Shown here piece after piece: positions 3,915 to 60,009 of a DNA stretch of 64,000 nucleotides (the stretch's first letter is position 1; each line of letters starts with the position of its first letter). Made by a program: the position numbers and the translations under genes. Source of the stretch: a bacterium (GTDB lineage Bacteria > Fidelibacterota > Fidelibacteria > Fidelibacterales > Fidelibacteraceae). The notes below the pieces were generated by a model. It was not told the origin of the DNA. It did no database searches and worked only from the letters and a program-made list of their open reading frames with translations. The DNA lies in NCBI GenBank assembly GCA_963676395.1, contig OY781066.1:608001-672000 (forward strand). The letters are read 5' to 3'.

Positions 3915-3969
3915 AATGATCTCGTTTCCATTGTGATACAAAAATCATATCGTAAATAAATCGATAAAT

Positions 3970-10164: not shown

Positions 10165-10186
10165 CGTTTCATCCAATAGTAATTGG

Positions 10187-11197: not shown

Positions 11198-11232
11198 AGA
11201 GATTTCCTCTTTTTTCATTTAGTGAAACTAAT

Positions 11233-37817: not shown

Positions 37818-40800
37818 TTACCAATTAAAAATATCCTCCGAAAATTTCATATGGAAGCTCAAGAAAAAATTATTATATAAATAATTTTGAGATCCAAAAT
37901 CAGGATCCTCAAATCGACTAATTTGATATCCTAAACCTACCTGCATGTTCTTGATAAGGTTATAGCCGACCTCAACCGACGAGCCTACTTTATCCTGACC
38001 TAATTGAGGAATATCAATAAATTTCACATCAGCAGCGGCATACCATTTTAAACTTAGGTCATATTCTAATCTTAAAGCAAAATATCTGGTTGTAATAATA
38101 TCTTTAAACTGAAGTATCTGTTCATCTACGATCATTCTATAGGCAAATGAAAACCCTACTTCTAATTTTTCCGTTGGCTGCCAATAATTATGTGCGTACA
38201 GAATAAATCTTTCATTATTTGTCTTATCGGCAACATGCGTATTCTTATCTTGCAAATATGCTACCTTGATCAACGAATTAAAGAAATCACTTCGCTCAGG
38301 ACGTATTGCAAGACCAATTTGATTGTCCGATTTAATAACATAATCATTAAATGATTCCAGATAATTGGTTTGCGTATACGTTAGCTTTGCAAGAAATGAT
38401 AAACCGCGCGCCAATTTAAAATCCATATTAAACATTACGTTCCATTGACGTGAATCACTCTTGGCTAACAATTCACCTTTAGCTGTCATTTTAAAAGGTA
38501 TTTCAGGCAAAAATTCAAATGAAGTTGATAGGGCCTGGTGATCAATCGTTGCAACCCTAAGGCTGTCGGCTACAGAAACATTCTCATAAGCTACGTTAAA
38601 GGTAATATTCTTACCGATCTTCCATTTATTCTTTAAACCGATGGTGGCACGGTTCCGATCGTCGCCACTGGTTCCACCAATTTCATATTTACCTGTTAAT
38701 TCGGTATTCTCTTTTACTTTTGAATCAATCCCAACAACAAATTGATTGGGTTTTTCACTGTTTTCTACACGCTTATATTTAGCTATTAAAGCTACTTTTT
38801 CGCTAATGGAATATGTTAAGCCAATACCGGTAAAAGTGGGCTTAGCCTGATCGGTCTTAATGAGGTTTTGCTCTCGTTCAACGGTTGCTTTGATTTTCTT
38901 GCCTAATTTATAATCAAGAGCTCCTTTGATCAATTGGGAACGCGTAGATTTCAGCGTATCACCGCTTATAGAGATCTTCTCGGCATTTTCATAAGCAACA
39001 TTTACATTTCCTTTTTCCAAAAACGATTGCTTATAAGTAATATTGAATGCTTTAGCGGTATTTTCATTTACAGTACCCACTTTGCTTAACTGGTTATAAT
39101 ATTCGGATTGTAATTGACCAAATTTCTCATTGCCCATTTTTAGACGAAAACCATATTTCTGAGAACCACTTTCAGAACTTTTACCTGTTTGAGACATATT
39201 TGTAAAAGACGTATCAATATTTCTATAGTATGCCGAAATATTAAAAAACTTCATAGGGTTAAATAAAATCTCTGCTTTATATGCATTACCTAAGATCTTT
39301 TCACCACTCATCTCAGGAGTAATTGACTGTGCAACTTCACTTTTTATTGACAGCCATTTAAATAAGGGCATTGTAGCATCTAAACCGTAAAGATAATAAT
39401 TTGATACTTGTTTTTCTTCCGCAACAAACAAAGCACCAAGATTCAATTTTTTAAAAAGTGTACCGTCGTATCTGATACCACCGATAGCTGTTTCTCGTTT
39501 TCCGGATTTGTATTCGTACGAAATAACAATATAAACAGGGTTGCCGTCATCATCTAAACTGGGGACAGGCTGCTTGAACATGATAGAACCATCTTCATAA
39601 TTAATGGTATAATCTTGATATCTGTTCATTTCTTTAGAACGAATAACAATTTCTGAACGATACTTATCTCTTGTCTGTATTTCGATCTTATCTGAAAGTT
39701 CAGTTACATAAGTTTGTGACAAGAAATAATAACCTGAAATACCTTCACCTCGGATCTCATCCAATTGCATTTCACGATCTGTAAAGGTACCAAAAGCTCT
39801 TATGGAATGTTCTTTATAATTAAGATCAGCAAGCAAACCGTTAAATGTTCTATTATACGCTGTAAATTCAGCTTGGTCTAATTTAGTATCAAAATCACCA
39901 TACATAACAGCCGATTCATTTTCTTCCAATTTAATAAATAATTCGGAATTACTTTGAGCATCATATTCAAGGGTAGAGGCATCACCATATACCGCATATT
40001 GCTCCGAAGGGTCAATATCCTGATAGAATTGATCACGATAATTTCGTTTAGAATCGTAAGAAGCGGTCAATTGATATTTATTAAGAATATTTCCTCTGGC
40101 GTAGAATGCTACTCGACCACCATACATAGCTAGATTATTATTAAAAACCTTTTCACGCCAAACTTCTACATCAGGTTCATTTTCATTATCAGGAAAATCC
40201 TGAAAATTTGATACCGCACCATTTACGGATCCAACAAACATAAAATCACCCTGAGGAGTTGTGTAACGAACCGGCATTTGAAAATATTCACCGCGAACTG
40301 AAACTTCAAGTATGGCCTTTGTAGCTTCTTTAGGAGATTTTACAGGGAATTTCAATTCCCCGTTTTGAACAGGTAATTGAACACCCGCTGCCATTATATC
40401 CATATCTTCCGAAGCAACTTTTCCATGTGTTAATTGTACGGTTGCAACCTTTAAGTTATCAAGCAAGTATCCCCACTCATCTCTAAATTCAAAGCTCAAT
40501 GTATCCATACTGTGTCCATCGGCCGGAATCTCTATCTTTTCTTTATAAGGAACCATGCTCTTTGGTGGCCCCATAACATGGATATTACGTTCCGAAGTAA
40601 AGATCTTATCTCGCGCACCCACTGATTCAACGCGGAACTTAACCGGCCCATCAGGGACATGAATATTGAGAAAATCATAAACACCGTCTACACGAATTGT
40701 TCCTTCGGATGCTAATTCATCGTTTACATATAATTTAGTATTTGCACCGGCTTTACCCATGACCGTAACGGCAACATGATGAAGATTTGTAACGCTGCCT

Positions 40801-40904
40801 TCCATAGGATTCAGGATAAGTGCCTGACCCAGGAGCGGGATAGCTCCCAAACAAAGGATCAATATGATCCAAAGAATTTTAAGCGTTTGTTTCTTCATAA
40901 TCAT
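37818..40904 (-). CDS. Large outer-membrane beta-barrel protein associated with DUF11/OmpA locus (putative usher-like pore)
   Basis: Signal peptide, N-terminal Ig-like domains, GRVAFYARG...LTASYDSKR...YAVYGDAS motif, ~550 aa of amphipathic beta-strands, aromatic C-terminus; ATG abuts the upstream TAA. Confidence 0.75.
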   Translation of the reverse strand: MIMKKQTLKILWIILILCLGAIPLLGQALILNPMEGSVTNLHHVAVTVMGKAGANTKLYVNDELASEGTIRVDGVYDFLNIHVPDGPVKFRVESVGARDKIFTSERNIHVMGPPKSMVPYKEKIEIPADGHSMDTLSFEFRDEWGYLLDNLKVATVQLTHGKVASEDMDIMAAGVQLPVQNGELKFPVKSPKEATKAILEVSVRGEYFQMPVRYTTPQGDFMFVGSVNGAVSNFQDFPDNENEPDVEVWREKVFNNNLAMYGGRVAFYARGNILNKYQLTASYDSKRNYRDQFYQDIDPSEQYAVYGDASTLEYDAQSNSELFIKLEENESAVMYGDFDTKLDQAEFTAYNRTFNGLLADLNYKEHSIRAFGTFTDREMQLDEIRGEGISGYYFLSQTYVTELSDKIEIQTRDKYRSEIVIRSKEMNRYQDYTINYEDGSIMFKQPVPSLDDDGNPVYIVISYEYKSGKRETAIGGIRYDGTLFKKLNLGALFVAEEKQVSNYYLYGLDATMPLFKWLSIKSEVAQSITPEMSGEKILGNAYKAEILFNPMKFFNISAYYRNIDTSFTNMSQTGKSSESGSQKYGFRLKMGNEKFGQLQSEYYNQLSKVGTVNENTAKAFNITYKQSFLEKGNVNVAYENAEKISISGDTLKSTRSQLIKGALDYKLGKKIKATVEREQNLIKTDQAKPTFTGIGLTYSISEKVALIAKYKRVENSEKPNQFVVGIDSKVKENTELTGKYEIGGTSGDDRNRATIGLKNKWKIGKNITFNVAYENVSVADSLRVATIDHQALSTSFEFLPEIPFKMTAKGELLAKSDSRQWNVMFNMDFKLARGLSFLAKLTYTQTNYLESFNDYVIKSDNQIGLAIRPERSDFFNSLIKVAYLQDKNTHVADKTNNERFILYAHNYWQPTEKLEVGFSFAYRMIVDEQILQFKDIITTRYFALRLEYDLSLKWYAAADVKFIDIPQLGQDKVGSSVEVGYNLIKNMQVGLGYQISRFEDPDFGSQNYLYNNFFLSFHMKFSEDIFNW

Positions 40905-43900
40905 TTATTTTTCTATCGTGATCTCTATTGAATCATCAAATAGAATATCACCATTACTTTGAACCTGTTCTTTTTGTGAGAGGACTCTGATCTCTACGCG
41001 GCGGTTTGCCTCGCGTCCCTCAACTGTATTATTATCAGCTATTGGATATTCCCGTCCATAACCTTTCATTTCAATTCTGCTAGGTTGGATCAAATATTTC
41101 TTGATCAAAACCTCACGTACGGCTTCTGCACGACGTTCCGATAATACTTTCCCAACCTTCCAACTACCTACATTATCACTGTATCCTTCGATTCGTATTT
41201 TTGCCCAAGGCTGCCAACGCAAAAATTCTGCGATCTTTGCAATACCTTCATCCTCAACAGATTTGAGTTTTGGAGAGTGGAATTCGAAGTCGGAATCTTC
41301 TATAACTTCCATAAAAAGCAAACGATTTACTTCGGTTGAAATGGTATTCATCATCAATGGGGTTTGATGTAATCTACCATCTCCAATATGGTATTCAAGC
41401 ATTGATACGACAGAACTGTGTGAACCGATCTCTTCGGTTTCATTTGGCAATAACTGGAAACTCATTTCATGCTGTTTAGATTCTTTTAGATCACCCATAT
41501 CCCAAATAATTGCATTTTTACCTGCTATTTCAGGTTTATATGATGCAAAATCCAGTTTACTGACCGTTTCGTCCAGAATAAAACCTTTAGGTAGATATGT
41601 GTAGAATTTAACGTCCTTAAGTAAGATAGAACCGGTATAGTTCAGATCTAACTGAAGGTTGATCTTTTGTTTTTCATCTGGAGCTACGCGAACCGGGAAA
41701 AAAGTCAGCTTAATGATGCGTCGTCCATTCTTCTCAACTCTAGACAAATCTTTTAAGTACTTACATTTGATCCGCCGTTTTTCTATACCGAATCCCTGCA
41801 GTTCTTTACACATGACATCTACAGGCTGCTGTTCTGCTTTAATAGATTTATGCATCATATTGACATCAAAACCATTGCTTTTAAAAGCTTCTTCAACGAG
41901 AACCGTAACATCACTACGCCAATTAAGATATTTTTTAATGTCTATCAGCTCTTTGCTTTTTGATAACTCATAACGGTTATTATCATTATTATATTCAAGA
42001 ACTAATTTCATTGACCAAGGATCATAGGAAGTCATTCTTAATGCCCTAGTCATTGTTTCTTGTTCTATATCAACAACAGATCTTTCAGGAAGCTGTTTAT
42101 TGTTTTTAGGTTTTTCTGCTTTTGTTACAACTTTTTTCTCGGGTACAAAGTTTTCGCCACCGAGTACAAAATTCGCTTTAGCGATACCCGAGGCGGATAG
42201 CTTAACAAGTCTTGAATCCGTATCGCCAAGGAAATCACTTGAAGAAAGTAATACATGAGTATTCTTGGGCAAGGTAATTGGATTAATCTTAAGTACATGA
42301 GACCCTAAGCGTACACTTGGAATTGAGTATTTACCATATTCATCTGTAGTAACTCTTACACCATTTTCAGTAACTAATTCAACATTTTTAAAAGTCTCTT
42401 CATCATTATCGTGCATGTTGTTTCCATTGCGATCGTAAAATACTTTACCAAAGATCAAACCATAACCTTGCATCATACTTGGTTTAATAACAACCTTGGC
42501 AACAGCTATATTAGAAAGAACCTGATCACCTGTTTGGAAGTAACCTCGAGCAGATGCCATATTTTCATTCTCACCGAAGCTGCAATTCATACCGACAACG
42601 GTACGATACTTAATCTTTATACTTCCCCCCGGAGCAATGGAACGATCAACATGCCATAATAGTGTTGCCCGATTATCTTGCATAAGCATTTCGGGATCGG
42701 CAATAGTCTCGGTACCAATAATGGTACGACCTTCACGATATCTGAAACCGACAGGAAGTTTATCGGTCAGCAAAAAGTTTGTAATACCTTGATCTTCACT
42801 TTGATTTGTTACTTCAACGGTATATGTCAACACATCACCCAATTCGGCGATCTGTTTGTTTACAGTTTTTTTAACAACAAGAAATGGAGCAATAATACTT
42901 GAAGTTGCCTTTGTACGGAGATCATCGGCAGTATAAGCTGTATCATTTTCAGTATAGATATAAGCAGTATTCGTGATATCTTTTTCAATATTAGCCGTAA
43001 CTTCAACAAGAAAAGTAATTGAATCGTGCTGTTGAGCGTGCATACCATAACGAAGGAATGAAACTTCATTGCTAACCGGGTTATATCTATCAAAACGCAT
43101 ACCCATACCATTAACAAATGAACTTTCGATAAATTCAACTTCTTCGGGAAGCTGATCTACAAGATGAATAGTATCGGCGATCACATTATCCAATGTTTGG
43201 AAATAAATTGTGTACCTTAAACTATCACCCTTAACCACAATCTCTTTATCTACCCGTTTGTATACATCAAAAAGAATCGGCTCATTGTAGATATCGGCAT
43301 TAATCACATGAATACCGCTTTGATCTAAATTTACTTCCCGGGTTCCTGCATAGAAATATTCGCCTTTTCCAAAAATAGCATCGATCCTGTAATTGCCAAG
43401 ATCCAATTTATTAAAATAAAAGAAACCACTTGTATCAGTGCTCACAGAATCAATATATACGGGATTGTCATTATATTTATTCAGGGTGTTTTCACTAAGG
43501 TGGCTTAAGTAAATACTGACTCCCGATCTACGGATAGGATCACCTGACATATGATCAACGATCCTTCCAGATAAAGCAGCCGTATTTTTAACATCATCAA
43601 CCTGTCCTGTACCGGAATCGGTAACCTCAACTGGCTGATCAATCGTATGACTATCACCTTTTTTATCATTGAATTGAACTCTAATGATATAATCACCGGA
43701 ATGATAAAGAGCAATACTATAGTTACCGGATTCATCTGTGACAGCTGATCCGATAATATTACCACCCTGGATCAACAGTACTATAGCACCACTTACGGGC
43801 AATCCGGAATTATCACGAACAACACCGTTAACTCTTCGTGCATAAAATACAACATCGGTGGAGTCAGTTAATCTATCACCATTTACAGCAACAACTTCGG

Positions 43901-46148
43901 CACTGACCTTTGTTGGTACATAATCGGTAGATACAACCTCTGAACGCAAACGCATTTCGGCATAGCCGTTTGAAGTACTGACAATATGATTTGTACTTAA
44001 TAGAGTACCGTGTTCAGTATAAAAATGAACATCGGTACCATCGGATACTGGTCTCCCGGCACCATCAAATACACGGGCTGTTAATTGTGTATAATCTTCA
44101 CCATTTCCAATGACTGAATCAGGATTCGCTGTTAAATCTAATTTATAAGGCTTGATCTCAGTAATAAAAGTATTTGATTCAGAAACAACACCCAATGATT
44201 GAATGTTTGCTTTATTTTTAATCTCTTCGACCGCTATATGATCTTCTTTTATTTTAACATCAAGTTTAACACTACCTTGAGTATTAAGAGCTAAATGTCC
44301 TAAATTCCACATTACAGTATTATAAGTACTATTGTAATTATATGCGCCGGTTGCAGAGATAAATTTTAAGTGCTCACTTAAGGTATCAACAATAACGGTT
44401 GATGTTGCAACAGCATTTCCTTGATTAGCATAATTAAAAATATAGCGGATCGTATCACCAACCAATGCTTCATCGACTGAAGATTTAACCAGGCTTAATC
44501 CTGGAGCGGAAACAATTTCGACAAGGGATGTATCTTCTGCAGAAAATCCACAATCAGATTCCATTACAGCATTGTTATTTAACTCAGTACCGTTTACCAA
44601 AGGTTTATGAACCCTAACACTCAAGTTTAATGCTTGCGATGAGCTCATTAAAGCATCCACATCACCAAGAAACCATTGAATCACATGATCATGGGTATAA
44701 TAATGGTAGGTACCGGAAGCAGATATAAAATCGACATGAGCAGCTAAAGTATCATAAACCATTACATTCTTTGCTATACCATGTCCGCTATTAATATAAT
44801 CAATCGAATAATTTACCAGTTCACCCGCCTGCACTTTAGTGCTGTCGGCTGTTTTACTTATTTGTAATATAGGTGACTCAATTAAAATATCGGAATAAGC
44901 TGAAGCAGCCTTTCCTTCGAAACATACAATATCAGATTCACTGCGTAAATAACTTCCATCTGGAACACTTTTTTTAATTCTTACTGTAACTTCAACCGTA
45001 TCTTGTTTACCGGCACTCAATGGATCAGGATGAAAGGTGATATCATTATCATAAAGATCATAAATCGCACTCATGGAAGATGAAATATACTCCATATTCT
45101 TGTGCAAAGTTTCTTTCATTTCCAAACCGGTAGCGGCAGCATTCCCACGGTTTTCGATGAAGATTTGATATGTGACAGTATCTAAAGGTGAAGCATATGA
45201 AGGCATACTTCTTTGCATATAAAGATCAGGTTCACCTAATGATTCAGATACAAGTACTTTAGCGGATGTATACTTTTGTTCCCCCCCGGAACTTACGGAT
45301 GCAAAGTTAACAATATTGGTACCGGCCGGGACACCATCACGAACAATTACCATTACACTTCTTTCAACAATGTCACCCGGGTGAACATCACCTACAGACC
45401 ATGAAACGATGCCACTTTGTTCTTGCTTATCACCGCTTGCCGAAACAAAAACCAATTCTTGTGGCAAATCATCAAATAGCATAACATTATAGGCTGGAGC
45501 ATTACCCATGTTAAAAATGCGTATATTGTAATTAAGAGTTTCACCGGGCCTTGCACTGGGCTTATCAACTATTTTTTCTATACTAAGTGAAGCCTTATTC
45601 CCAATTAGAATACTTGCCGGTGCAGAAATACCCTTAACTTTTTCAGCAGTTTCGTAAACCGCCGTGTTTAAAATTTCTTCATCATGTGAAAAACCGGGAG
45701 GAACCATACAGAAGATATCAAACTGTAAAGCATTCCCGAAATTTAAACTAAGATTATCCCAGGTAAGAACATTAGCGTTCACCTGAGCTGGTGGATTAGA
45801 GCTAAGATAGGTTAATTCACTGGGTAAGGTATCGGAAACCGAAAATGAAGAAGCGATGAAATTACCCGTATTACTGATCTCAATATGATATTTTACTGTA
45901 TCCATGGGAAGGTAAACGGGTGAATCAACCGATTTAGAGATTGTTAAAAGATATGCCGGTGCAACAACAGTCGTTGTTTGCTCACTTGAAACATTATAAC
46001 GATAACCACCCGCATCAGAATAACTACCATGTGCGGTATTGGTGATCTCAGTTCCAAAAGGAGTTTGCGCATAAATGCAACTAATACTTGATACAACAAG
46101 TACCAGCAGCATATAAATTACCCGCAATGTCAGAAACCGGTCTCTCAT
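40905..46148 (-). CDS. Multi-DUF11 surface protein with Big_1/SdrD-B-like Ig domains and C-terminal OmpA peptidoglycan-binding domain
   Basis: Seven L.I.K..D....GD...Y.I...N.G...D.LP repeats; IFGKVFYDRNGN SdrD-B-like; IEGYSDNVG...LSERRAEAV...GYG...NRRVEI OmpA. Confidence 0.88.
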   Translation of the reverse strand: MRDRFLTLRVIYMLLVLVVSSISCIYAQTPFGTEITNTAHGSYSDAGGYRYNVSSEQTTTVVAPAYLLTISKSVDSPVYLPMDTVKYHIEISNTGNFIASSFSVSDTLPSELTYLSSNPPAQVNANVLTWDNLSLNFGNALQFDIFCMVPPGFSHDEEILNTAVYETAEKVKGISAPASILIGNKASLSIEKIVDKPSARPGETLNYNIRIFNMGNAPAYNVMLFDDLPQELVFVSASGDKQEQSGIVSWSVGDVHPGDIVERSVMVIVRDGVPAGTNIVNFASVSSGGEQKYTSAKVLVSESLGEPDLYMQRSMPSYASPLDTVTYQIFIENRGNAAATGLEMKETLHKNMEYISSSMSAIYDLYDNDITFHPDPLSAGKQDTVEVTVRIKKSVPDGSYLRSESDIVCFEGKAASAYSDILIESPILQISKTADSTKVQAGELVNYSIDYINSGHGIAKNVMVYDTLAAHVDFISASGTYHYYTHDHVIQWFLGDVDALMSSSQALNLSVRVHKPLVNGTELNNNAVMESDCGFSAEDTSLVEIVSAPGLSLVKSSVDEALVGDTIRYIFNYANQGNAVATSTVIVDTLSEHLKFISATGAYNYNSTYNTVMWNLGHLALNTQGSVKLDVKIKEDHIAVEEIKNKANIQSLGVVSESNTFITEIKPYKLDLTANPDSVIGNGEDYTQLTARVFDGAGRPVSDGTDVHFYTEHGTLLSTNHIVSTSNGYAEMRLRSEVVSTDYVPTKVSAEVVAVNGDRLTDSTDVVFYARRVNGVVRDNSGLPVSGAIVLLIQGGNIIGSAVTDESGNYSIALYHSGDYIIRVQFNDKKGDSHTIDQPVEVTDSGTGQVDDVKNTAALSGRIVDHMSGDPIRRSGVSIYLSHLSENTLNKYNDNPVYIDSVSTDTSGFFYFNKLDLGNYRIDAIFGKGEYFYAGTREVNLDQSGIHVINADIYNEPILFDVYKRVDKEIVVKGDSLRYTIYFQTLDNVIADTIHLVDQLPEEVEFIESSFVNGMGMRFDRYNPVSNEVSFLRYGMHAQQHDSITFLVEVTANIEKDITNTAYIYTENDTAYTADDLRTKATSSIIAPFLVVKKTVNKQIAELGDVLTYTVEVTNQSEDQGITNFLLTDKLPVGFRYREGRTIIGTETIADPEMLMQDNRATLLWHVDRSIAPGGSIKIKYRTVVGMNCSFGENENMASARGYFQTGDQVLSNIAVAKVVIKPSMMQGYGLIFGKVFYDRNGNNMHDNDEETFKNVELVTENGVRVTTDEYGKYSIPSVRLGSHVLKINPITLPKNTHVLLSSSDFLGDTDSRLVKLSASGIAKANFVLGGENFVPEKKVVTKAEKPKNNKQLPERSVVDIEQETMTRALRMTSYDPWSMKLVLEYNNDNNRYELSKSKELIDIKKYLNWRSDVTVLVEEAFKSNGFDVNMMHKSIKAEQQPVDVMCKELQGFGIEKRRIKCKYLKDLSRVEKNGRRIIKLTFFPVRVAPDEKQKINLQLDLNYTGSILLKDVKFYTYLPKGFILDETVSKLDFASYKPEIAGKNAIIWDMGDLKESKQHEMSFQLLPNETEEIGSHSSVVSMLEYHIGDGRLHQTPLMMNTISTEVNRLLFMEVIEDSDFEFHSPKLKSVEDEGIAKIAEFLRWQPWAKIRIEGYSDNVGSWKVGKVLSERRAEAVREVLIKKYLIQPSRIEMKGYGREYPIADNNTVEGREANRRVEIRVLSQKEQVQSNGDILFDDSIEITIEK

Positions 46149-46172: not shown

Positions 46173-46195
46173 CCTGCCCCGAAAATCGGGGCAGG
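46173..46195 (-). terminator. Intra-operon hairpin (attenuator or stabiliser) between shaft and anchor genes
   Basis: CCTGCCCCGA/TCGGGGCAGG 10 bp stem followed by a weak GTTTAAT tract on the minus strand. Confidence 0.7.
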
Positions 46196-46231
46196 ATTTT
46201 ATTTCAAAGATAACGTTAAGCGTTAAACTTA

Positions 46232-47911
46232 TTATTGAATTTTAGTTTTAAATTCAACGGTTGTTGAAGCGCCGGCACCCAAAGTAGGAAGTTCGAAGAC
46301 AACGGTATTTTTTTCAAGTTGTGCTTCATCTTCATCCTTGGCATCTGTTTTTGCTACACCACCCAGTTTCATAGTACCTCTTTGATACCATGTGTTTTCA
46401 GGGACATCATCATCAATTCTTAGATCTGTTGCAACACCTGTACCAACGTTTAAAATAGTAATGGTGTATGTCAGAACTGTACCTGGAGGTTGGTTACCTG
46501 TAGGCGATACGGCTTTTAAAAGGGATAGGATAGGAGCCGTAACAGTGATTGTTAATTCACCTTCGTCTGACTCATCTTCATTTCCTTCTGAAGTGGCTGT
46601 AAGGGTCATAACAGAAACAACTTCATCAGGTGTACCTGCCGGAATCTGGCCTTTGGCAACAAGATATACAACTGCACCCTGAGCCATTGTAGCTGTTTGA
46701 GCATCTTCTAGTTCTTCTTCATCTTCATCGATCCGACCGTTTTCATTGGCGTCCAAATAGAATTCCCAATCTGGGATCAAATCACAGACCTCAGAAATAT
46801 TCATTTTGTCGGGACCATTACCTTTATTGGTCACCGTAACTGCGTAATAAACATAATCTGAGGGGTCACCGACAGTTACCTGATCGGAACCTACTGCAAC
46901 AAACCAGATCTGAGCTACTGTTAACGTAGCACCACTGGCATTAGCTGATACAGCGAGCTGATCTTCACCTAAAATATTCTTCCAAAGCAATACGGCTGCA
47001 TTGGCAATGACTGTATTTACAGGAACATTATCATTGATTACAATCTGGAAAGTTGCTGTTGCACTTGAGCCACTGCTGATTTCATCAAACATGAAATTGG
47101 CAACTGAAGGAACGCCTTCGATAAATTCAGCGTCATCATCACCTTTATCGTCTGATTGTGCTACCCCATTGATCTTAAGAGATCCGGCTACATATGACGT
47201 GTTTACAGCAATACCTGCCGCAAATACAACATCCTGAGCATCTGCCGAACCTGTATTGGTTACTGCCAATGTATAAGTAACAACATCACCCGGTTGAGGA
47301 TCATTGTTATCAGCAGTCATCGTAAAGGTATACTCTGAAGTTTTTACTCGTACGCCCATGTATGCGGCTGTTTTGATCTCATTATTAAAACGTGATTCCA
47401 AACCAAGTGTAATATTTGCTGATGAAGCATCTTCTCCCGAAATATTTTCAACAACGACGACAATGTTGTATGACGTGTACATTGCCATATCAGGAGTTTC
47501 TCTGACTTCTTCTTCGCCTTCATCTACAACGCCATTTCCGTTGGCATCATGATATACGGTTGAAACAAATTCATCTCCTGTAGGACTTTGAAGAGCATTG
47601 CTGATCTTATATGAATCAACACCGTTTCCCGTATTAACGATCGACATTGGAAATGATACTGTTCCGTATAAAACCATATTCTGGAAAGCTTCCATCGGCG
47701 ATAAATCCACACCGGCAACCTGTGATACGATCGTTGTTACTGTGTTTGAGGTTACGCTGGCCATGGCATTGCCATTGGCATCACGGTAGTTACCTGTTGC
47801 AAAGTTGCTGATCTCTGTGCCTGCCGGTGTTGGTAGAGCAACCATTGCAAAGGCAACACTCGACAACATTATCGTTGCCAAAAGTGCGACTAATACATGT
47901 TTAAATTTCAT
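46232..47911 (-). CDS. DUF11-domain secreted protein, putative major pilin/shaft subunit (copy 1)
   Basis: Signal peptide; N-terminal TPAGTEISNFATGNY...SNTVTTIV segment; Ig domains with DANGNG/DANENG Ca-type loops; C-terminal truncated DUF11 domain. Confidence 0.8.
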   Translation of the reverse strand: MKFKHVLVALLATIMLSSVAFAMVALPTPAGTEISNFATGNYRDANGNAMASVTSNTVTTIVSQVAGVDLSPMEAFQNMVLYGTVSFPMSIVNTGNGVDSYKISNALQSPTGDEFVSTVYHDANGNGVVDEGEEEVRETPDMAMYTSYNIVVVVENISGEDASSANITLGLESRFNNEIKTAAYMGVRVKTSEYTFTMTADNNDPQPGDVVTYTLAVTNTGSADAQDVVFAAGIAVNTSYVAGSLKINGVAQSDDKGDDDAEFIEGVPSVANFMFDEISSGSSATATFQIVINDNVPVNTVIANAAVLLWKNILGEDQLAVSANASGATLTVAQIWFVAVGSDQVTVGDPSDYVYYAVTVTNKGNGPDKMNISEVCDLIPDWEFYLDANENGRIDEDEEELEDAQTATMAQGAVVYLVAKGQIPAGTPDEVVSVMTLTATSEGNEDESDEGELTITVTAPILSLLKAVSPTGNQPPGTVLTYTITILNVGTGVATDLRIDDDVPENTWYQRGTMKLGGVAKTDAKDEDEAQLEKNTVVFELPTLGAGASTTVEFKTKIQ

Positions 47912-47929
47912 CTGTCTCTCCTTAAAATA

Positions 47930-48418
47930 TTATTTTACTGTTACTTCAAATTCGAGCTGCTTACTTTCTTTCGGTGTAAGCGATTTCTTCAATTCCCATT
48001 GTACGTGTGTAACCATATCGGGGGAAGCGGCTTTTTTAACCATTTTACCATTTTTGTCTTTTATCTCATACTTAGGAGGCCATGCCTGATAAGTTCTGCC
48101 ACCATCAATAGAAAAACTTACATCTGCATGTTTACCTTTGGCCGAATTAGGTTTATACGATGTACCGGCTGGAATAGGATCCGTGATCACTGGTTCTGTC
48201 ATGGTTCCTGTTCCTATATTCTGTGCCCAAACCGTATATTTGATCACATCACCCGGTCGATAGGCAATTGCTTCTGTGCCCATTCTTTCTGCCTGACTCA
48301 TGTTCATTTTCTTTTCTGCGATGCGCAGTTCAAGCTTTGGGCTACCTTGTGCAAATGCTGCAGTACCAAAAACTAAAGCTACCAACAGAACGAGGACTGT
48401 TAATTTACGTAGTTTCAT
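47930..48418 (-). CDS. Single DUF11-like domain secreted protein, putative chaperone (copy 1)
   Basis: Signal peptide; RPGDVIKYTV..QN.G......ITDPIPAGTSY...FSIDGGRTY...VTHVQW; basic composition. Confidence 0.78.
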   Translation of the reverse strand: MKLRKLTVLVLLVALVFGTAAFAQGSPKLELRIAEKKMNMSQAERMGTEAIAYRPGDVIKYTVWAQNIGTGTMTEPVITDPIPAGTSYKPNSAKGKHADVSFSIDGGRTYQAWPPKYEIKDKNGKMVKKAASPDMVTHVQWELKKSLTPKESKQLEFEVTVK

Positions 48419-48430
48419 TCTCTCTCCTTT

Positions 48431-49195
48431 TTATTTGACTACTACTTTATATATTACATTACCACTGCCACCGGCCTCTAAATTACCATTTAATGTAAAA
48501 AGCAAATCAGTAACAGGTAAGGTCTCTTCGTTATTATATGTTAATCCGCCATCATGGCTGTAAGTGACAGTCATATTATTTCCAGCAGCCGTACCGGGGA
48601 CATAATCCGTATTACTGCCTATCGTTTCATAGATCATTACAGAAGTTGCATCACCATCACCGCTATTTACATACGTAAGCGTATAAGTAAGCTGCTCTCC
48701 CGGAAGTCCGGTACTTTTATCTACAGATTTATTCAAAACAAGAAGCGGCGCTGTTGTACCCTGAACATTAACAGTTGCAGTAGGACCTATTTGTGTTTGA
48801 GAAATTCGATATCCCGTAACTCCGACATATACACCGAAATCACCCGTTTTTAAACTGGTAGTCGCTTTAAAATTAATCACTACCTTTTCTCCACTCCACA
48901 TAAGGAACCAATTAGTCCATGTTAACTGGTTTCCGTTGATATATGGATTTGAGTTTGTAGCACCATAAGTAGAGTTATTTACATAAGTAAATCCATCGGG
49001 TAAAACGACTACAGTTTGTGTTGGCATAATCCAATTTCGTCCGGTATTCCTTATCGTTAGAACATAAGTTACTTCTTCTTGAGGAGCTACTGCAGAAGGT
49101 GTTGCTGTTAAAGATAATGAGACGGCAGCAAAAAGGCTTGTAAGCGAAAAAGCCACTAGCAGAACTACAATTTTTTTCATAATTGTTTTTCTCAT
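48431..49195 (-). CDS. Two-domain DUF11 secreted protein, putative tip subunit
   Basis: Signal peptide; Trp-rich N-terminal DUF11-like domain; C-terminal LVLNKSVDK...PGEQLTYTL domain ending IYKVVVK. Confidence 0.78.
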   Translation of the reverse strand: MRKTIMKKIVVLLVAFSLTSLFAAVSLSLTATPSAVAPQEEVTYVLTIRNTGRNWIMPTQTVVVLPDGFTYVNNSTYGATNSNPYINGNQLTWTNWFLMWSGEKVVINFKATTSLKTGDFGVYVGVTGYRISQTQIGPTATVNVQGTTAPLLVLNKSVDKSTGLPGEQLTYTLTYVNSGDGDATSVMIYETIGSNTDYVPGTAAGNNMTVTYSHDGGLTYNNEETLPVTDLLFTLNGNLEAGGSGNVIYKVVVK

Positions 49196-50030: not shown

Positions 50031-50057
50031 CTCATTGTATTAAAGTTCTTAAGTTTA

Positions 50058-51737
50058 TTATTGGATTTTAGTTTTAAATTCAACGGTTGTTGAAGCGCCG
50101 GCATCCAAAGTAGGAAGTTGAAAAACAACGGTATTTTCTTCAAGTTGTGCTTCATCCTCATCCTCGGCATCTGTTTTTGCTACACCACCCAGTTTCATAG
50201 TACCTCTTTGATACCATGTATTTTCAGGAACATCATCATCAATTCTTAGATCTGTTGCAACACCTGTACCAACGTTTAAAATAGTAATGGTGTATGTCAG
50301 AACTGTACCTGGAGGTTGGTTACCTGTAGGCGATACGGCTTTTAAAAGGGATAGGATAGGAGCCGTAACAGTGATTGTTAATTCACCTTCGTCTGACTCA
50401 TCTTCATTTCCTTCTGAAGTGGCTGTAAGGGTCATAACAGAAACAACTTCATCAGGTGTACCTGCCGGAATCTGGCCTTTGGCAACAAGATATACAACTG
50501 CACCCTGAGCCATTGTAGCTGTTTGAGCATCTTCTAGTTCTTCTTCATCTTCATCGATCCGACCGTTTTCATTGGCGTCCAAATAGAATTCCCAATCTGG
50601 GATCAAATCACAGACCTCAGAAATATTCATTTTGTCGGGACCATTACCTTTATTGGTCACCGTAACTGCGTAATAAACATAATCTGAGGGGTCACCGACA
50701 GTTACCTGATCGGAACCTACTGCAACAAACCAGATCTGAGCTACTGTTAACGTAGCACCACTGGCATTAGCTGATACAGCGAGCTGATCTTCACCTAAAA
50801 TATTCTTCCAAAGCAATACGGCTGCATTGGCAATGACTGTATTTACAGGAACATTATCATTGATTACAATCTGGAAAGTTGCTGTTGCACTTGAGCCACT
50901 GCTGATTTCATCAAACATGAAATTGGCAACTGAAGGAACGCCTTCGATAAATTCAGCGTCATCATCACCTTTATCGTCTGATTGTGCTACCCCATTGATC
51001 TTAAGAGATCCGGCTACATATGACGTGTTTACAGCAATACCTGCCGCAAATACAACATCCTGAGCATCTGCCGAACCTGTATTGGTTACTGCCAATGTAT
51101 AAGTAACAACATCACCCGGTTGAGGATCATTGTTATCAGCAGTCATCGTAAAGGTATACTCTGAAGTTTTTACTCGTACGCCCATGTATGCGGCTGTTTT
51201 GATCTCATTATTAAAACGTGATTCCAAACCAAGTGTAATATTTGCTGATGAAGCATCTTCTCCCGAAATATTTTCAACAACGACGACAATGTTGTATGAC
51301 GTGTACATTGCCATATCAGGAGTTTCTCTGACTTCTTCTTCGCCTTCATCTACAACGCCATTTCCGTTGGCATCATGATATACGGTTGAAACAAATTCAT
51401 CTCCTGTAGGACTTTGAAGAGCATTGCTGATCTTATATGAATCAACACCGTTTCCCGTATTAACGATCGACATTGGAAATGATACTGTTCCGTATAAAAC
51501 CATATTCTGGAAAGCTTCCATCGGCGATAAATCCACACCGGCAACCTGTGATACGATCGTTGTTACTGTGTTTGAGGTTACGCTGGCCATGGCATTGCCA
51601 TTGGCATCACGGTAGTTACCTGTTGCAAAGTTGCTGATCTCTGTGCCTGCCGGTGTTGGTAGAGCAACCATTGCAAAGGCAACACTCGACAACATTATCG
51701 TTGCCAAAAGTGCGACTAATACATGTTTAAATTTCAT
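50058..51737 (-). CDS. DUF11-domain secreted protein, putative major pilin/shaft subunit (copy 2)
   Basis: Identical to 46232..47911 except four residues in the last 35 aa. Confidence 0.8.
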   Translation of the reverse strand: MKFKHVLVALLATIMLSSVAFAMVALPTPAGTEISNFATGNYRDANGNAMASVTSNTVTTIVSQVAGVDLSPMEAFQNMVLYGTVSFPMSIVNTGNGVDSYKISNALQSPTGDEFVSTVYHDANGNGVVDEGEEEVRETPDMAMYTSYNIVVVVENISGEDASSANITLGLESRFNNEIKTAAYMGVRVKTSEYTFTMTADNNDPQPGDVVTYTLAVTNTGSADAQDVVFAAGIAVNTSYVAGSLKINGVAQSDDKGDDDAEFIEGVPSVANFMFDEISSGSSATATFQIVINDNVPVNTVIANAAVLLWKNILGEDQLAVSANASGATLTVAQIWFVAVGSDQVTVGDPSDYVYYAVTVTNKGNGPDKMNISEVCDLIPDWEFYLDANENGRIDEDEEELEDAQTATMAQGAVVYLVAKGQIPAGTPDEVVSVMTLTATSEGNEDESDEGELTITVTAPILSLLKAVSPTGNQPPGTVLTYTITILNVGTGVATDLRIDDDVPENTWYQRGTMKLGGVAKTDAEDEDEAQLEENTVVFQLPTLDAGASTTVEFKTKIQ

Positions 51738-51755
51738 CTGTCTCTCCTTAAAATA

Positions 51756-52244
51756 TTATTTTACTGTTACTTCAAATTCGAGCTGCTTACTTTCTTTCGG
51801 TGTAAGCGATTTCTTCAATTCCCATTGTACGTGTGTAACCATATCGGGGGAAGCGGCTTTTTTAACCATTTTACCATTTTTGTCTTTTATCTCATACTTA
51901 GGAGGCCATGCCTGATAAGTTCTGCCACCATCAATAGAAAAACTTACATCTGCATGTTTACCTTTGGCCGAATTAGGTTTATACGATGTACCGGCTGGAA
52001 TAGGATCCGTGATCACTGGTTCTGTCATGGTTCCTGTTCCTATATTCTGTGCCCAAACCGTATATTTGATCACATCACCCGGTCGATAGGCAATTGCTTC
52101 TGTGCCCATTCTTTCTGCCTGACTCATGTTCATTTTCTTTTCTGCGATGCGCAGTTCAAGCTTTGGGCTACCTTGTGCAAATGCTGCAGTACCAAAAACT
52201 AAAGCTACCAACAGAACGAGGACTGTTAATTTACGTAGTTTCAT
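51756..52244 (-). CDS. Single DUF11-like domain secreted protein, putative chaperone (copy 2)
   Basis: Protein identical to 47930..48418. Confidence 0.78.
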   Translation of the reverse strand: MKLRKLTVLVLLVALVFGTAAFAQGSPKLELRIAEKKMNMSQAERMGTEAIAYRPGDVIKYTVWAQNIGTGTMTEPVITDPIPAGTSYKPNSAKGKHADVSFSIDGGRTYQAWPPKYEIKDKNGKMVKKAASPDMVTHVQWELKKSLTPKESKQLEFEVTVK

Positions 52245-52565
52245 TCTCTCTCCTTTTTATTTGACTACCAGTTTGTCTTCTTTATTAGACTCTTTTCAAC
52301 TTCAAACATATACTTTATTAAATAATAGCAAAAAAATTAAAAGCAAGCGCATAGACATGGTTACAAAACCATATCAAGAAAAATAAAGCTCTTAATTTTT
52401 CAGTTCTAGATTACTATTAAGATATATTGAATTCCCCTTTGAGGGAAACACTCTATCATATCTTATAGTAAAATCACAATCCCATGTTGTTGTTTGAATT
52501 TGATACATCTCTTCATTCTCTCTCCATTCACTCACTTCACATATCTTCGACTATCTCTCTATATG

Positions 52566-52622
52566 CATATTACACAGCAAGTTAAGTATTTCCTAATTAA
52601 TTATAATTAATAAACACTTAAG
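52566..52622 (-). promoter_or_regulatory. Conserved regulated-promoter motif, copy 2
   Basis: CTTAAGTGTTTATT..ATAATTAATTAGGAA-N13-TGTGTAATATG. Confidence 0.65.
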
Positions 52623-52685
52623 TTTAATTAAAGATCAGCTTACAAAATAATTAACATCATCATATCAATATCAGCTTAAAATTCA

Positions 52686-52890
52686 TCAATTGTACTTTAA
52701 CTCGATGCTAATAACTACCACACTGCTGTCGACGTCCATTTCGTTATTAACAGCAAAATCACTTCTATATTCCGGATAATTTTACTGATCCTTGCTTATA
52801 TATTATGTTCTCAGATATTTTATCTTCAATAATAACATCAGTTAAATTTCCATTTAGGGTCATGATAATAAATTGTGTATAGGATGACAT
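52686..52890 (-). pseudogene. Decayed third copy of the DUF11 shaft gene (C-terminal domain remnant)
   Basis: Own translation TDVIIEDKISENIIYKQGSVKLSGI* aligns with shaft TDLRIDDDVPENTWYQRGTMKLGGV; in-frame stops; sits downstream of the third chaperone paralog. Confidence 0.65.
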
Positions 52891-53080
52891 CTCAATATCT
52901 AATAACAGTTTTATAGTGTTGGGGGACTATTAGAGTGCTATTGGCATTACGAGAATTTCCGTCACAACATTAAGGCTCTCTGTAACCACAACAAAATCTG
53001 CAAAAAACTGTCATTAATACAGAAAGAATAAAAAGGAACATCCTTTAGATCTTTATTCTCTCATCATATTTATTCTTGAT

Positions 53081-53569
53081 TTATTTTACAATAACCTGGA
53101 ATTCCAGCTCCTTGCTTGCATTAGGAGCTAAAGATTTTTTCAATTCCCATTGAATATGTGTAATCATATCCGGTGAAGCCATCTTTTTAACGGTTTTTCC
53201 ATCTCTATCCTTAATTTCGTATTTTGGTGGCCAGGATTGGTATACTTTTCCACCATCAATAGAAAATACGATATCTGCAAAACTTCCTTTTGCACTGTGA
53301 GGCTTATAGGAAGTCCCCGTAGGAATAGGATCACTTATCACCGGCTCGGTCATCATGCCTTTTCCTACATTTTGGGCCAATACGGCATAGCGTATCATAT
53401 CACCGGGTTTGCAGGTAACTTTAACCTTACCCATTTTTTCTGCTTGAGTCATATTGATCTTGGTCTCAATAATAGTCAATTCCAACTTTGGTCTGTCCTG
53501 AGCAAAAGAAAACACAGAATAAAACAAAACCAAAACCATTATAAATGGTAATTTTTTGCCTGTCTTCAT
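53081..53569 (-). CDS. Single DUF11-like domain secreted protein, diverged third paralog of the putative chaperone
   Basis: 162 aa, colinear with 47930..48418 (EPVISDPIPTGTSYKP, FSIDGG, WPPKYEIKD, ASPDM.TH.QWELKKSL). Confidence 0.8.
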   Translation of the reverse strand: MKTGKKLPFIMVLVLFYSVFSFAQDRPKLELTIIETKINMTQAEKMGKVKVTCKPGDMIRYAVLAQNVGKGMMTEPVISDPIPTGTSYKPHSAKGSFADIVFSIDGGKVYQSWPPKYEIKDRDGKTVKKMASPDMITHIQWELKKSLAPNASKELEFQVIVK

Positions 53570-57654: not shown

Positions 57655-60009
57655 CTATCTTATTACTATAAATTTCTTTATCACGGCATCACCGGCTAAC
57701 AAACTAACACCCGTTTGAGGATCATCAAAATCCTCCTCCATAACGAAGCGAGCAATATACACTCCACTAACCAGAATCTGTTGCCAATCAGTAGTTAAAA
57801 ACCAGGTATATCCTGCTTCGGATTCTTCAACATCAGTAACATAATCTCCGCGCTCAGAATAAATACTGATCTTACAACCACTTGGTACACCGGCGAACAG
57901 AAGTTTATTTACATTGCCAAGAAATTGAATGTTTTCATTACGTACATTGATAGGATTGGGCACCACTCTTATCAATAAGCTCATCAAAGCTTTTCTATCG
58001 TCAGGATCTCCCAAATCGAAATCATTAATATTTAATTTTTCATTTGGTGCCGGTGGACTTTTCACAGTAGCACCGCGATTGGTTCTTGTGTAAAAGGGAC
58101 TACTTTCCAAAGCGATACCCGGTTTTTCCACATTTTGGCTTCCATCGTCATAAGCAGTGATATAATAAAAATAATTCTGGCCTCTTAATGGTTCGTTATC
58201 AATAAATTGAAATTCATCACTACCATCAACCCGATAATTTTCTATACTTCCATCACTGATATTACAATCTAGAATTCTTTGGTAAGTTGAATCCTTTTCA
58301 ACATAAGCCCGATACACTCTAAAGCCCTCAAAATGGTTATGAGCCATAGAAGCAGCTCCGTTCCAAGTCAATAGAATACCATCAACAGTTGAAAATATTT
58401 CAACTTTTTCGGGCGCTTGCGGGGCAGGGCTGATCGTTTCGTAGAAATTTCCCTTATATAATTTGATGGCTTTTTTAAACGCAAGCATCAAAGAATCACG
58501 ACCGCTATATACTAGATCATTTTTCCATTTATCACAATTATCAGCATTAATCGTCATGGTCGTTGATGGGTTTGCCGGATCAATCACTGTTAATGTTTCC
58601 CCATTTCTTGCCCTTAGCCACTTCCTACCGATCTCATAGCCATAATCATGTCCAACTCCTCCTGCACACTCGGCCCATACAATCTTCACCTTTTCACCGG
58701 GCGCTATAGTGTAGGGCCCAAAAGACAACATTTGGTTATAACCTTGCGCCCCATTAGCAGTAGAATATAATCCGGCATCACCACCCTGTACATTCCAAAC
58801 GGTTTCGGCCATGCTTGGAGCATCATTTCCATTTGCCATATATTTTGTATATTTCTCCGTCATCCCCAGCGCATCATATTGATCTAAGCCCGCCGTAAAT
58901 GTGTATGGATTATTTCCATCAATAAAGCTTTGCGATGAAGGTTGAGATCTATCATCAGTATTATCGGACGGTGAAGTATCAGCGTGTATTACAACCATTC
59001 CCTTGTATTGAACAGAACCCAAACGACCATCATTTAAGGCCGGAAGACCATTATGCGCTGTTCCATTCACATTCGGTGAACCGATATTGTCATAACCGAA
59101 ATTGGCCCATTTCCCCATCCATGCTACATATCCTCGCATCCAATTCCCGTCGGCATCTTGCGCATCCAAACCTGTCATGTCTTCATAACTTGAAGTTGTC
59201 GTAGGGTTACTCTGATCTTCACCTATCACATCACTCATCATACTGTACCCCCAAGAAACCTCTCTCACAGATTCTGAGATCCAGTGTCGATGAACAGGAG
59301 TAAAAGCTCCCGAGTAACACCCTTCTTGCGAAATAGCATCACACCATTGCCAATTAAAGTAAACATCTTCTAAAGTCTGCTCATGAATATTACCCGCCAA
59401 ATTATAAATCCCTGTATTTTCAAATTCGTATTCCGAGATAAGAATATCATCATAATTCTGTTGTGAAACAGCATATACTTTACGTGTAAATGTTAATCCA
59501 ACAGATGTATTTACAACATTGACCAGAACTCTATCGGCTTTAAGTGAAGGATCAACAGAATCAATATCATCATTTTTTCCGTCAGCACCATTAGTCATAT
59601 CATTGGCAACTTTATCATCCACATATACTTCCGGATGATCCTTGCGCGCAAATAAACTTAGTTCCTGAGGCATATACTCACGGATCTCAACATCGGTCAC
59701 GGCTCTGGGACCATTATGAACGACTTTATAAGCATAACTTTTGTTTTGTACCGGATCAAAGAAATTCTTTACCCCGATCCACATCCCCTTGGCGGCCTGC
59801 ATATCCTGATCGCGATAAAATGAATCCCATGTAAAACCATATTGCTGTTGATAATAGGCTACAACTTCATGTTCTGTCCCGGTATCATAAAAGAAATTTT
59901 GCAATGAACCAATGGTGATCCATTTGTAACGAGTAGCAGCTTCACTTGTAAATACAAGTAAAAGTGCCATCGTAAAAAGCAGTACTTTTCGTATTAAATA
60001 ATTTTTCAT
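57655..60009 (-). CDS. Orphan paralog of the TBDR-partner secreted protein at 12723..15077
   Basis: Same length (784 aa), long identical blocks (GFTWDSFYRDQDMQAAKGMWIGVKNF; SSPFYTRTNRGATVKSPPAP; LTTDWQQILVSGVYIA). Confidence 0.78.
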   Translation of the reverse strand: MKNYLIRKVLLFTMALLLVFTSEAATRYKWITIGSLQNFFYDTGTEHEVVAYYQQQYGFTWDSFYRDQDMQAAKGMWIGVKNFFDPVQNKSYAYKVVHNGPRAVTDVEIREYMPQELSLFARKDHPEVYVDDKVANDMTNGADGKNDDIDSVDPSLKADRVLVNVVNTSVGLTFTRKVYAVSQQNYDDILISEYEFENTGIYNLAGNIHEQTLEDVYFNWQWCDAISQEGCYSGAFTPVHRHWISESVREVSWGYSMMSDVIGEDQSNPTTTSSYEDMTGLDAQDADGNWMRGYVAWMGKWANFGYDNIGSPNVNGTAHNGLPALNDGRLGSVQYKGMVVIHADTSPSDNTDDRSQPSSQSFIDGNNPYTFTAGLDQYDALGMTEKYTKYMANGNDAPSMAETVWNVQGGDAGLYSTANGAQGYNQMLSFGPYTIAPGEKVKIVWAECAGGVGHDYGYEIGRKWLRARNGETLTVIDPANPSTTMTINADNCDKWKNDLVYSGRDSLMLAFKKAIKLYKGNFYETISPAPQAPEKVEIFSTVDGILLTWNGAASMAHNHFEGFRVYRAYVEKDSTYQRILDCNISDGSIENYRVDGSDEFQFIDNEPLRGQNYFYYITAYDDGSQNVEKPGIALESSPFYTRTNRGATVKSPPAPNEKLNINDFDLGDPDDRKALMSLLIRVVPNPINVRNENIQFLGNVNKLLFAGVPSGCKISIYSERGDYVTDVEESEAGYTWFLTTDWQQILVSGVYIARFVMEEDFDDPQTGVSLLAGDAVIKKFIVIR

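Follow-up and report, generated by a model that had tools for sequence, protein, structure and literature searches.

The DUF11 domain, renamed CLIPPER, is known from fibrillar adhesins; in its crystal structure 9IFR, an intramolecular isopeptide bond joins Lys715 to Asn806, and Asp748 is the catalytic residue (PMC12617251). In these adhesins a single polypeptide makes up the stalk, all three triad residues (Lys/Asp/Asn) belong to the same contiguous domain, and the bond forms within the molecule. We analyzed a 64,000 nucleotide (nt) stretch of DNA (hereafter the window; positions 608,001–672,000 of contig OY781066.1, assembly GCA_963676395.1) from a member of the Fidelibacteraceae, in which the gene at 46232–47911 of the minus strand encodes a 559 amino acid (aa) protein, designated here the shaft subunit. 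The shaft shares with the CLIPPER adhesins the family, the fold of its internal domain D2 and the Lys/Asp/Asn triad, but its Asn-bearing strand is found at the opposite terminus of the chain, and this split recurs in four partner proteins. Our best reading, to which we assign a probability of roughly 0.6, is that shaft subunits would join head to tail into a fibre, with each joint locked by an isopeptide bond formed autocatalytically between residues K466 and N36.

A comparable principle is described for BsaA from Clostridium perfringens, a member of the TasA family that polymerizes by "donor-strand exchange and lock" (10.1101/2024.11.04.621531). As in our reading of the shaft, an N-terminal segment of BsaA enters the sheet of the next subunit, and a bond between N35 and K74, with E56 as the catalyst, is formed without any enzyme; as described there, BsaA differs in its unrelated fold and family, in its Gram-positive host, in donating a single strand, in having no tip, cap, anchor or barrel, and in its need for SipW and type IV pilus proteins. 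The comparison of the shaft with the TasA/camelysin family (Peptidase_M73, PF12389) produced only a match on D2 below the cut-off (E value of 0.069; 13.4 bits, where 22.5 are required). The archaeal thread protein Saci_0406 is also assembled head to tail by N-terminal donor-strand complementation, with proposed inter-subunit isopeptide bonds, but there the bond links the Asp24 alpha-amino group with Asn57 two subunits further on (n+2), a Lys/acid triad is absent, and the host is an archaeon without outer membrane; the protein has no Pfam domain (PMC9715654). Spontaneous inter-subunit isopeptide bonds also occur in A-ENA spore fibres. Three further candidates for a precedent were discarded: the Pam pili of the candidate phyla radiation (CPR), which use donor strands with no isopeptide bond; F-ENA, where DUF11 is only a stalk domain; and the "tafi" paper, whose match came only from DUF1102. 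A strand-complemented fibre based on DUF11/CLIPPER was not found in the literature searched, most subscription journals being outside the reach of this search.

The shaft starts with a Sec-type signal peptide, followed by a donor hairpin (aa 28–62, 47726–47830; strands 32–43 and 49–62), delimited with a donor hidden Markov model (HMM) and by alignment to complete domains, then by three beta-sandwich domains (D1 to D3) and, at the C-terminal end, by a truncated CLIPPER/DUF11 acceptor domain of seven strands (D4, aa 459–559, 46235–46537), delimited with the Pfam profile and DSSP; all operon genes and their domains mentioned in this work are on the minus strand. Residue N36 (codon at 47804–47806) is carried by the donor motif T-P-A-G-T-x-I-x-N-x-A, K466 (46514–46516) is on strand 1 of D4 and D501 (46409–46411) on strand 3, with a spacing from Lys to Asp of 35 residues versus 33 in 9IFR, and D4 ends in ...F-x-V/T-x-I-Q-COOH. 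The Pfam DUF11 profile (PF01345) matched three stretches of the shaft with 55.4 bits, versus a cut-off of 24.6, and the NCBIfam profile TIGR01451 matched it with 65.1 bits. Shaft residues 465–558 aligned to positions 5–84 of the 114 positions in the DUF11 profile, and the last 103 aa, compared on their own, to positions 4–84; the C-terminus of the protein thus falls about where the Asn-bearing strand of DUF11 would start. Likewise, a BLASTP comparison with P0031, a tandem DUF11 protein of 3656 aa, aligned shaft residues 27–559 to residues 2935–3440 (E value of 1e-38), in which the first 35 aligned shaft residues cover the final strand pair of the preceding complete domain; beyond the last residue of the shaft, P0031 carries on with the next Asn-bearing strand. 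The sequence-only reading had assigned the gene, the three triad residues and the hairpin to these positions, and had taken the N-terminus for the last two strands of a DUF11 domain and the C-terminal domain for one that stops before those strands; both identifications hold, the former by the alignment to P0031 and the donor HMM and the latter by the end of the Pfam match at profile position 84.

The two halves can also be followed separately with two HMMs, one built only from N-termini (aa 26–66 of alignment A1, described below) and the other only from last domains (aa 456–559). In the tandem protein P0002 these models retrieved 19 acceptor and 20 donor matches (E ≤ 2e-4) that alternate along the chain, each repeat taking up about 124 aa. 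The shaft showed a donor at 28–66 (3.8e-23), an acceptor at 203–293 followed by a donor at 299–335, and an acceptor at 456–559 (1.4e-43), after which there was no donor match. From this pattern, N36 is equivalent to N304 of the internal domain D2, which occupies the expected Asn position in related Pfam profiles. Thus, in contrast to the single contiguous domain that holds the triad in described DUF11/CLIPPER proteins, D4 has no Asn strand and the conserved Asn is N36. This split anatomy, with the missing hairpin at the opposite end of the protein, is established far beyond chance.

With an E value limit of 0.001, an exhaustive search retrieved 3792 proteins, many being 530–630 aa long and alignable with the shaft from end to end; alignment A1 comprises 39 of these end-to-end homologues, with 25–55% identity to the window protein. 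The split triad is nearly invariant in A1, with N36 in 37/39 sequences (Ser in two), K466 in 38/39 (Gln in one) and D501 in 39/39. Conservation extends to T28 (39/39), I34 (38/39), A38 (38/39), F554 (38/39) and I558 (37/39), and the hydrophobic residues flanking the split site (I34, A38, V62, V468, F554 and I558) are near-invariant. The C-terminal end is at a common column in 38 homologues from A1, with one protein longer by three residues. Among 117 homologues having both ends, N, K and D are intact in 104, and seven others depart only in lacking alignment coverage at the Lys. The A1 proteins with a substitution are P0080, P0114 and P0054, two of them with Ser for N36 and K and D kept, and one with Gln for K466 and N and D kept.

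Domain D2 (aa 190–335, 46907–47344), an internal and complete CLIPPER domain, provides a reference within the same proteins. Its K and D columns align to those of 9IFR using the A1 profile, although in the window protein the triad is degenerate (M198, A232, N304). The position of M198 is occupied by K in 25/39 homologues and that of A232 by D in 26/39, and the whole K/D/N set is kept in only 25/39; the K was lost in 14 homologues and the D is gone as well in 13 of these 14, a joint loss that, judging from the sequences, is the pattern expected for a genuine but dispensable isopeptide site. The retention of the D2 triad in 25/39 homologues, compared with the near-universal presence of N36, K466 and D501, indicates that the split site is under the strongest constraint. 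The earlier claims that the internal domain has lost its K and D and that only the inter-subunit site remains intact are borne out by these counts, and, as regards the elements that are open to sequence and comparative tools, that reading appears supported.

The length separating donor from acceptor is modular: in 118 proteins, the spacer measured around 120 aa in six, around 260 aa in two, 350–450 aa in 103, 544 aa in one and 705–762 aa in six. Such variation would be easy for a chain to tolerate, but not for the closure of a ring.

The shaft gene is the third of a co-oriented operon with the order tip, cap, shaft, stalk/anchor and a gene for a 1028-aa protein, and the partner proteins carry one half of the split domain or none. 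The cap (162 aa, 47930–48418) consists of a signal peptide and, by Pfam, one truncated acceptor-type DUF11 domain with K37 and D80 and no donor; its match to the acceptor HMM (3.6e-15) runs to the C-terminus. The tip (254 aa, 48431–49195) contains a signal peptide, one DUF11-like domain and an acceptor domain with K156 and E190, again with no donor; it matches positions 2–81 of the 114 in the Pfam DUF11 profile and, at aa 148–253, the acceptor HMM (4.1e-20). Conversely, the anchor or stalk protein (1747 aa, 40905–46148) has a signal peptide followed by an orphan donor hairpin at aa 29–63 (45960–46064; donor HMM, 4.3e-8), and its first complete DUF11 domain begins only at aa 68; it contains seven complete DUF11 domains, Big_1 and CarboxypepD_reg/SdrD_B modules and, by Pfam, a C-terminal OmpA peptidoglycan-binding domain at aa 1621–1716. 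Abutting the anchor gene (40904/40905) is the gene for the 1028-aa protein (37818–40904), a putative outer-membrane barrel with a signal peptide and the C-terminal end ...FSEDIFNW-COOH.

Class counts were based on the window plus 60 related loci, found with the six closest sequences (alignment A2). The cap gene is directly before that of the shaft in 48/60 loci, and the shaft gene directly before an anchor or a stalk-barrel fusion in 49/60; the loci departing from this order correspond to contig ends or to divergence. The name of shaft subunit, already used in the sequence-only reading, fits this conserved order. With the two HMMs, donor plus acceptor were present in 51/62 members of the shaft class, the tip class was acceptor-only in 25/26 with a donor in none, a donor was found in 0/51 caps, and either element in 0/32 of the barrel class, whereas the anchor class was donor-only in 28/37 and the stalk-barrel fusions in 14/22. 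On visual inspection, almost every anchor and fusion begins with a signal peptide followed by x-P-x-G-T-x-I-x-N-x-A, and the donor Asn is present in all 30 aligned anchors and all 14 aligned fusions. The complementary residues are similarly conserved in the acceptors, with Lys in 24/25 tips and Asp or Glu in 25/25, and with K37 in 41/51 caps and D80 in 46/51. Since these operon partners are donor-only or acceptor-only, they can be completed only in trans, and trans complementation belongs to the system. In turn, homopolymerization of the shaft would follow from the presence of both halves in one chain, the modular spacer and the dosage features of its gene, that is, the duplication of the cap-plus-shaft cassette and a hairpin between this gene and that of the anchor (both described below), which fit a major subunit. 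Both this trans polymerization and the covalent bond are inferred from sequence.

From the above, we propose that the shaft would be the unit repeated along a surface fibre that assembles by itself. Once the protein has been exported by Sec and its signal peptide removed, the hairpin of aa 28–62 would enter D4 (aa 459–559) of another subunit and, with its seven strands, rebuild a nine-stranded CnaA-type domain; N36 would then adjoin K466 and the catalytic D501 within a core of conserved, alternating hydrophobic residues, and an autocatalytic Lys–Asn isopeptide bond would seal the joint. The resulting chain would be equivalent to the stalk of a single-chain tandem DUF11 adhesin, nicked every four domains and re-ligated via side chains. 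The tip and the cap, with acceptors only, could occupy only the distal end, and the 1747-aa stalk protein, with a donor only, the proximal end, where it would tie the fibre to the peptidoglycan by its OmpA domain and presumably also to the 1028-aa barrel; the fibre would presumably grow from its base and pass through this barrel.

Several observations weigh against this proposal. The tip from the window has 254 aa, versus 554–611 aa in its closest relatives, and is without their head domain; we found no RNA sequencing runs listing the locus; and the 1028-aa protein is only a putative outer-membrane barrel. The triad itself has exceptions among the 117 homologues with both ends, namely S at N36 in three, A at N36 in one and Q at K466 in one. 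Additionally, in the single-chain AlphaFold2 model of the shaft (alignment A1) the donor strands 32–43 and 49–62 had predicted local distance difference test (pLDDT) values of 85–92, and a homologue of 295 aa, in which a single domain separates donor from acceptor, was modelled with a mean pLDDT of 93, a predicted template modelling score (pTM) of 0.77 and donor values of 91–97. These monomer models probably dock the donor hairpin in cis, and sterically self-complementation would be permitted. The sequence-only reading had considered it unlikely because three domains separate the two halves; the three domains are indeed present in the AlphaFold2 model, but the confident placement of the donor in monomers makes the argument weaker than was stated.

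The hairpin could thus be a clasp that completes the C-terminal domain of its own chain, giving a closed and stapled monomer like the nested domains of tip pilins such as RrgA and GBS104, with the anchor alone pairing in trans with tip or cap. The models, with donor pLDDT values of 85–97, are compatible with such a clasp, and discontinuous isopeptide domains do exist, with GBS104-like_Ig being formed by residues 137–211 plus 587–717 (PMC12617251). Self-complemented monomers are reported for FimA (PMC6615685), and 3txa and 5mkc (RrgA Jo.In) are among the structural matches of our model. However, a single-chain prediction offers no second chain, so that docking in cis is the sole way of satisfying the contacts, and as such it neither proves nor excludes a cis state in the cell. 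A clasp would also have to accommodate spacers from one to around six domains and a donor that joins D1 without a linker, and the core motif of this donor is shared with the donors of the anchors, proteins that themselves lack an acceptor; the shaft would, moreover, be a dead end among four other parts that need partners in trans. We consider the clasp quite improbable.

If the strands are instead exchanged in trans, as we favour, the joint might be non-covalent, as in chaperone-usher and TasA fibres, with K466, D501 and N36 serving for packing or hydrogen bonding. The five exceptions at N36 or K466 mentioned above agree with this possibility, as does the replacement of Lys by Arg in 6/51 caps, all from Acidobacteriota-type loci (L042, L043, L045, L046, L048 and L051), and the N35A mutant of BsaA is reported still to give SDS-stable oligomers (10.1101/2024.11.04.621531). 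On the other hand, the three residues are, by column equivalence, the CLIPPER triad that forms the bond in 9IFR, and the triad is better conserved at the split site than in D2 of the same proteins, where K and D are lost jointly on decay, which makes a purely non-covalent joint improbable. Lastly, one or a few shaft units might be inserted between anchor and tip, resulting in a stalk of fixed composition and an adhesin of defined length; the stalk of the anchor alone already counts over ten domains, and the tips from relatives are large adhesin-like proteins. This is rather unlikely, though, because the donor and the acceptor of the shaft are of one type, with no sequence feature that would halt homopolymerization, and because the shaft-plus-cap cassette is duplicated and a hairpin follows the shaft gene. 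A covalently locked fibre of many shaft subunits remains our preferred reading.

Compared with chaperone-usher pili (Fim, Pap), this fibre would have the same tip-first polarity, a terminator or anchor subunit, an outer-membrane barrel gene and a diderm host (PMC13721041), whereas they use one donor strand and non-covalent joints, versus two strands, a predicted covalent lock and four-domain subunits in the shaft. A PapD-like chaperone was not matched by Pfam or NCBIfam profiles in the operon proteins, nor was an usher (PF00577), in searches limited to sequence profiles. Across the 60 loci there was no further gene family in more than nine, and no conserved sortase, PapD-like chaperone or peptidase; no search for sortases was made in the whole genome. 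The likeness to the sortase pili (BcpA, SpaD, RrgB) lies in their covalent, multi-domain pilins, whose CnaA-type isopeptide domains are the best matches of D2. In these pili, the sortase joins the threonine of an LPXTG motif to the lysine of a pilin motif; the shaft, with its ...EFKTKIQ end, has no LPXTG and no hydrophobic tail. The principle is otherwise that of the engineered Tag/Catcher pairs (SpyTag/SpyCatcher, SnoopTag, DogTag, Jo/In), in which an isopeptide domain is split and the strand with the reactive residue reacts in trans. These pairs are laboratory constructs, whereas the shaft would be a natural split that polymerizes because tag and catcher share one chain.

The occurrence together, in diderms, of an inter-subunit split CLIPPER domain, a two-strand donor and a large barrel protein that is unclassified, with no chaperone or sortase, is apparently unpublished. 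More tentatively, and with somewhat less than even confidence, we suggest that these loci define an enzyme-free and chaperone-free class of Gram-negative pili, with natural Tag/Catcher subunits and CLIPPER joints sealed by Lys–Asn bonds, exported through and rooted in a giant barrel that is not an usher, and present in many phyla; such pili would correspond, in diderms, to the covalent ones of the sortase type. In the textbook view, covalent pili are Gram-positive and the work of sortases, whereas those of Gram-negative bacteria are non-covalent; if our reading is true, a self-ligating and strand-complemented fibre from a diderm would blur this division and would add a way of assembling pili without any chaperone or enzyme. 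It would also suggest a way in which a long adhesin stalk of tandem repeats could pass the outer membrane piecewise and be re-joined outside. The system is widespread in diderm phyla yet apparently unstudied, and the shaft, tip, cap and anchor would constitute a natural, co-evolved and orthogonal tag/catcher set of possible use in protein engineering.

The AlphaFold2 model of the shaft (mean pLDDT 83.4, pTM 0.53) contains four beta-domains at around 64–188, 190–333, 336–456 and 462–558, the last of them with seven strands. D1 (aa 63–189, 47345–47725), delimited with DSSP, is a beta-sandwich that had no Pfam match on its own. D3 (aa 336–458, 46538–46906) is a divergent DUF11-like sandwich, which matched Pfam DUF11 with an E value of 1.3e-4, under the gathering score. 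The acidic loops pointed out in the sequence-only reading are present and conserved: each of these two domains contains a D-x-N-x-N-G-x-x-D loop (aa 122–130 and aa 387–395), with D122 in 39/39 and G127 in 36/39 homologues from A1, and the T-D-x-x-D-x-D loops found in D2 and D4 show conservation too. We take the acidic loops of D1 to D4 to resemble known Ca2+ loops, and by this analogy a stiffening of the shaft by Ca2+ is plausible. Comparison of the D2 model to 9ifr_A with VIA-align aligned 119 of 123 residues (Z of 11.9, root mean square deviation of 2.6), and the best pilin matches were BcpA 3kpt (Z of 13.3), SpaD 4hss (12.5) and RrgB 2x9z (12.3); these comparisons cover only D2, or the middle domain, and the CnaA-like fold is matched for D2 alone. 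As VIA-align keeps the order of the chain and the donor precedes the acceptor, docking in cis is not readable from them. A Foldseek search of the whole shaft model against the PDB was uninformative, giving only generic multi-Ig matches such as integrins and ciliary proteins.

A cap-plus-shaft tandem duplicate spans 50049–52268, which compared with 46223–48442 over 2220 nt shows 99.46% identity and 12 mismatches. The second shaft copy (50058–51737, minus strand) has four substitutions, all in D4 (K525E, K534E, E540Q and G545D), and the product of the second cap copy (51756–52244, minus strand) is identical to that from 47930–48418. A third and diverged cap paralogue, with 62% identity, is found at 53081–53569 of the same strand. 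Most relatives in the sample from the host phylum have one shaft gene. Upstream of the second cassette, a gap of 836 nt (52245–53080, minus strand) contains a short open frame with DUF11-like sequence, which may be a remnant of a second tip gene. The hairpin mentioned above (46173–46195) is GC-rich, with a perfect 10-bp stem and a weak U-tract on the sense strand, and is located in the gap of 83 nt from the shaft stop to the anchor start. Judging from its sequence and position, it could cut read-through into the anchor and barrel genes, as an attenuator, or stabilize the shaft mRNA.

The partners vary among the related loci. The N-terminal head of the relatives' tips (around 330–380 aa, with no Pfam family) had no tblastn match anywhere in the window, and more distant tips carry Big_12/Big_5, HYDIN/VesB-like Ig, SdrD_B and CBM_6/CBM_35 modules. 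Stalk and barrel are fused in 22 open reading frames (ORFs) of more than 1500 aa, with named examples of 1774–2076 aa; loci with a fusion include L025, L028, L033, L035, L036 and L040, and in the window the two are separate, abutting genes. An OmpA domain was found neither in the fusions scanned (L028, L035, L054 and L051) nor in the short anchor from L030. The 1028-aa protein from the window had no Pfam family above the cut-off, with DUF2490 below threshold, and no NCBIfam family. In the Acidobacteriota-type loci the shaft is a minimal form of around 295–363 aa, with one spacer domain, and the Arg-bearing cap may, on sequence grounds, bind the donor reversibly. A quick tree of acceptor domains grouped 49 cap domains in one clade with a support of 100, and the tip/cap/shaft label changed six times across its 136 rows.

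By their taxon labels, 20 of the 60 loci are from Neomarinimicrobiota/Marinimicrobia/Fidelibacterota, nine from Acidobacteriota, three each from Lentisphaerae, Deltaproteobacteria and Betaproteobacteria, and two from Nitrospirae; single loci are labelled Verrucomicrobia, Ignavibacteriales, Abditibacterium, "proteobacterium" and, in a metagenome-assembled genome (MAG), Clostridia, and the remainder are unlabelled. Among 151 sampled genomes of the host phylum, that of the window included, the shaft family (E ≤ 1e-30) is present in 38: apart from the window genome itself, 15 of the 21 genomes sampled in its genus have it, as do 19 of the 23 in one further genus, with almost none elsewhere in the sample. 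In the 2.34-Mb host genome, all matches to the family fall in this locus.

The window also encodes parts of a type IX secretion system and SusC-like receptors, indicating that the host is a diderm; the fibre proteins have no type IX sorting domain. Several large ORFs had no Pfam family at the thresholds used (1692–3941, 4747–6969, 11233–12705, 12723–15077, 57655–60009, 60489–60974 and 61079–61678). The ORFs at 142–1548, 6991–10176, 10187–11218 and 15096–18320 encode, together, a protein with a type IX C-terminal sorting domain, a PorV/PorP-like protein and two receptors with CarboxypepD_reg plus Plug domains.

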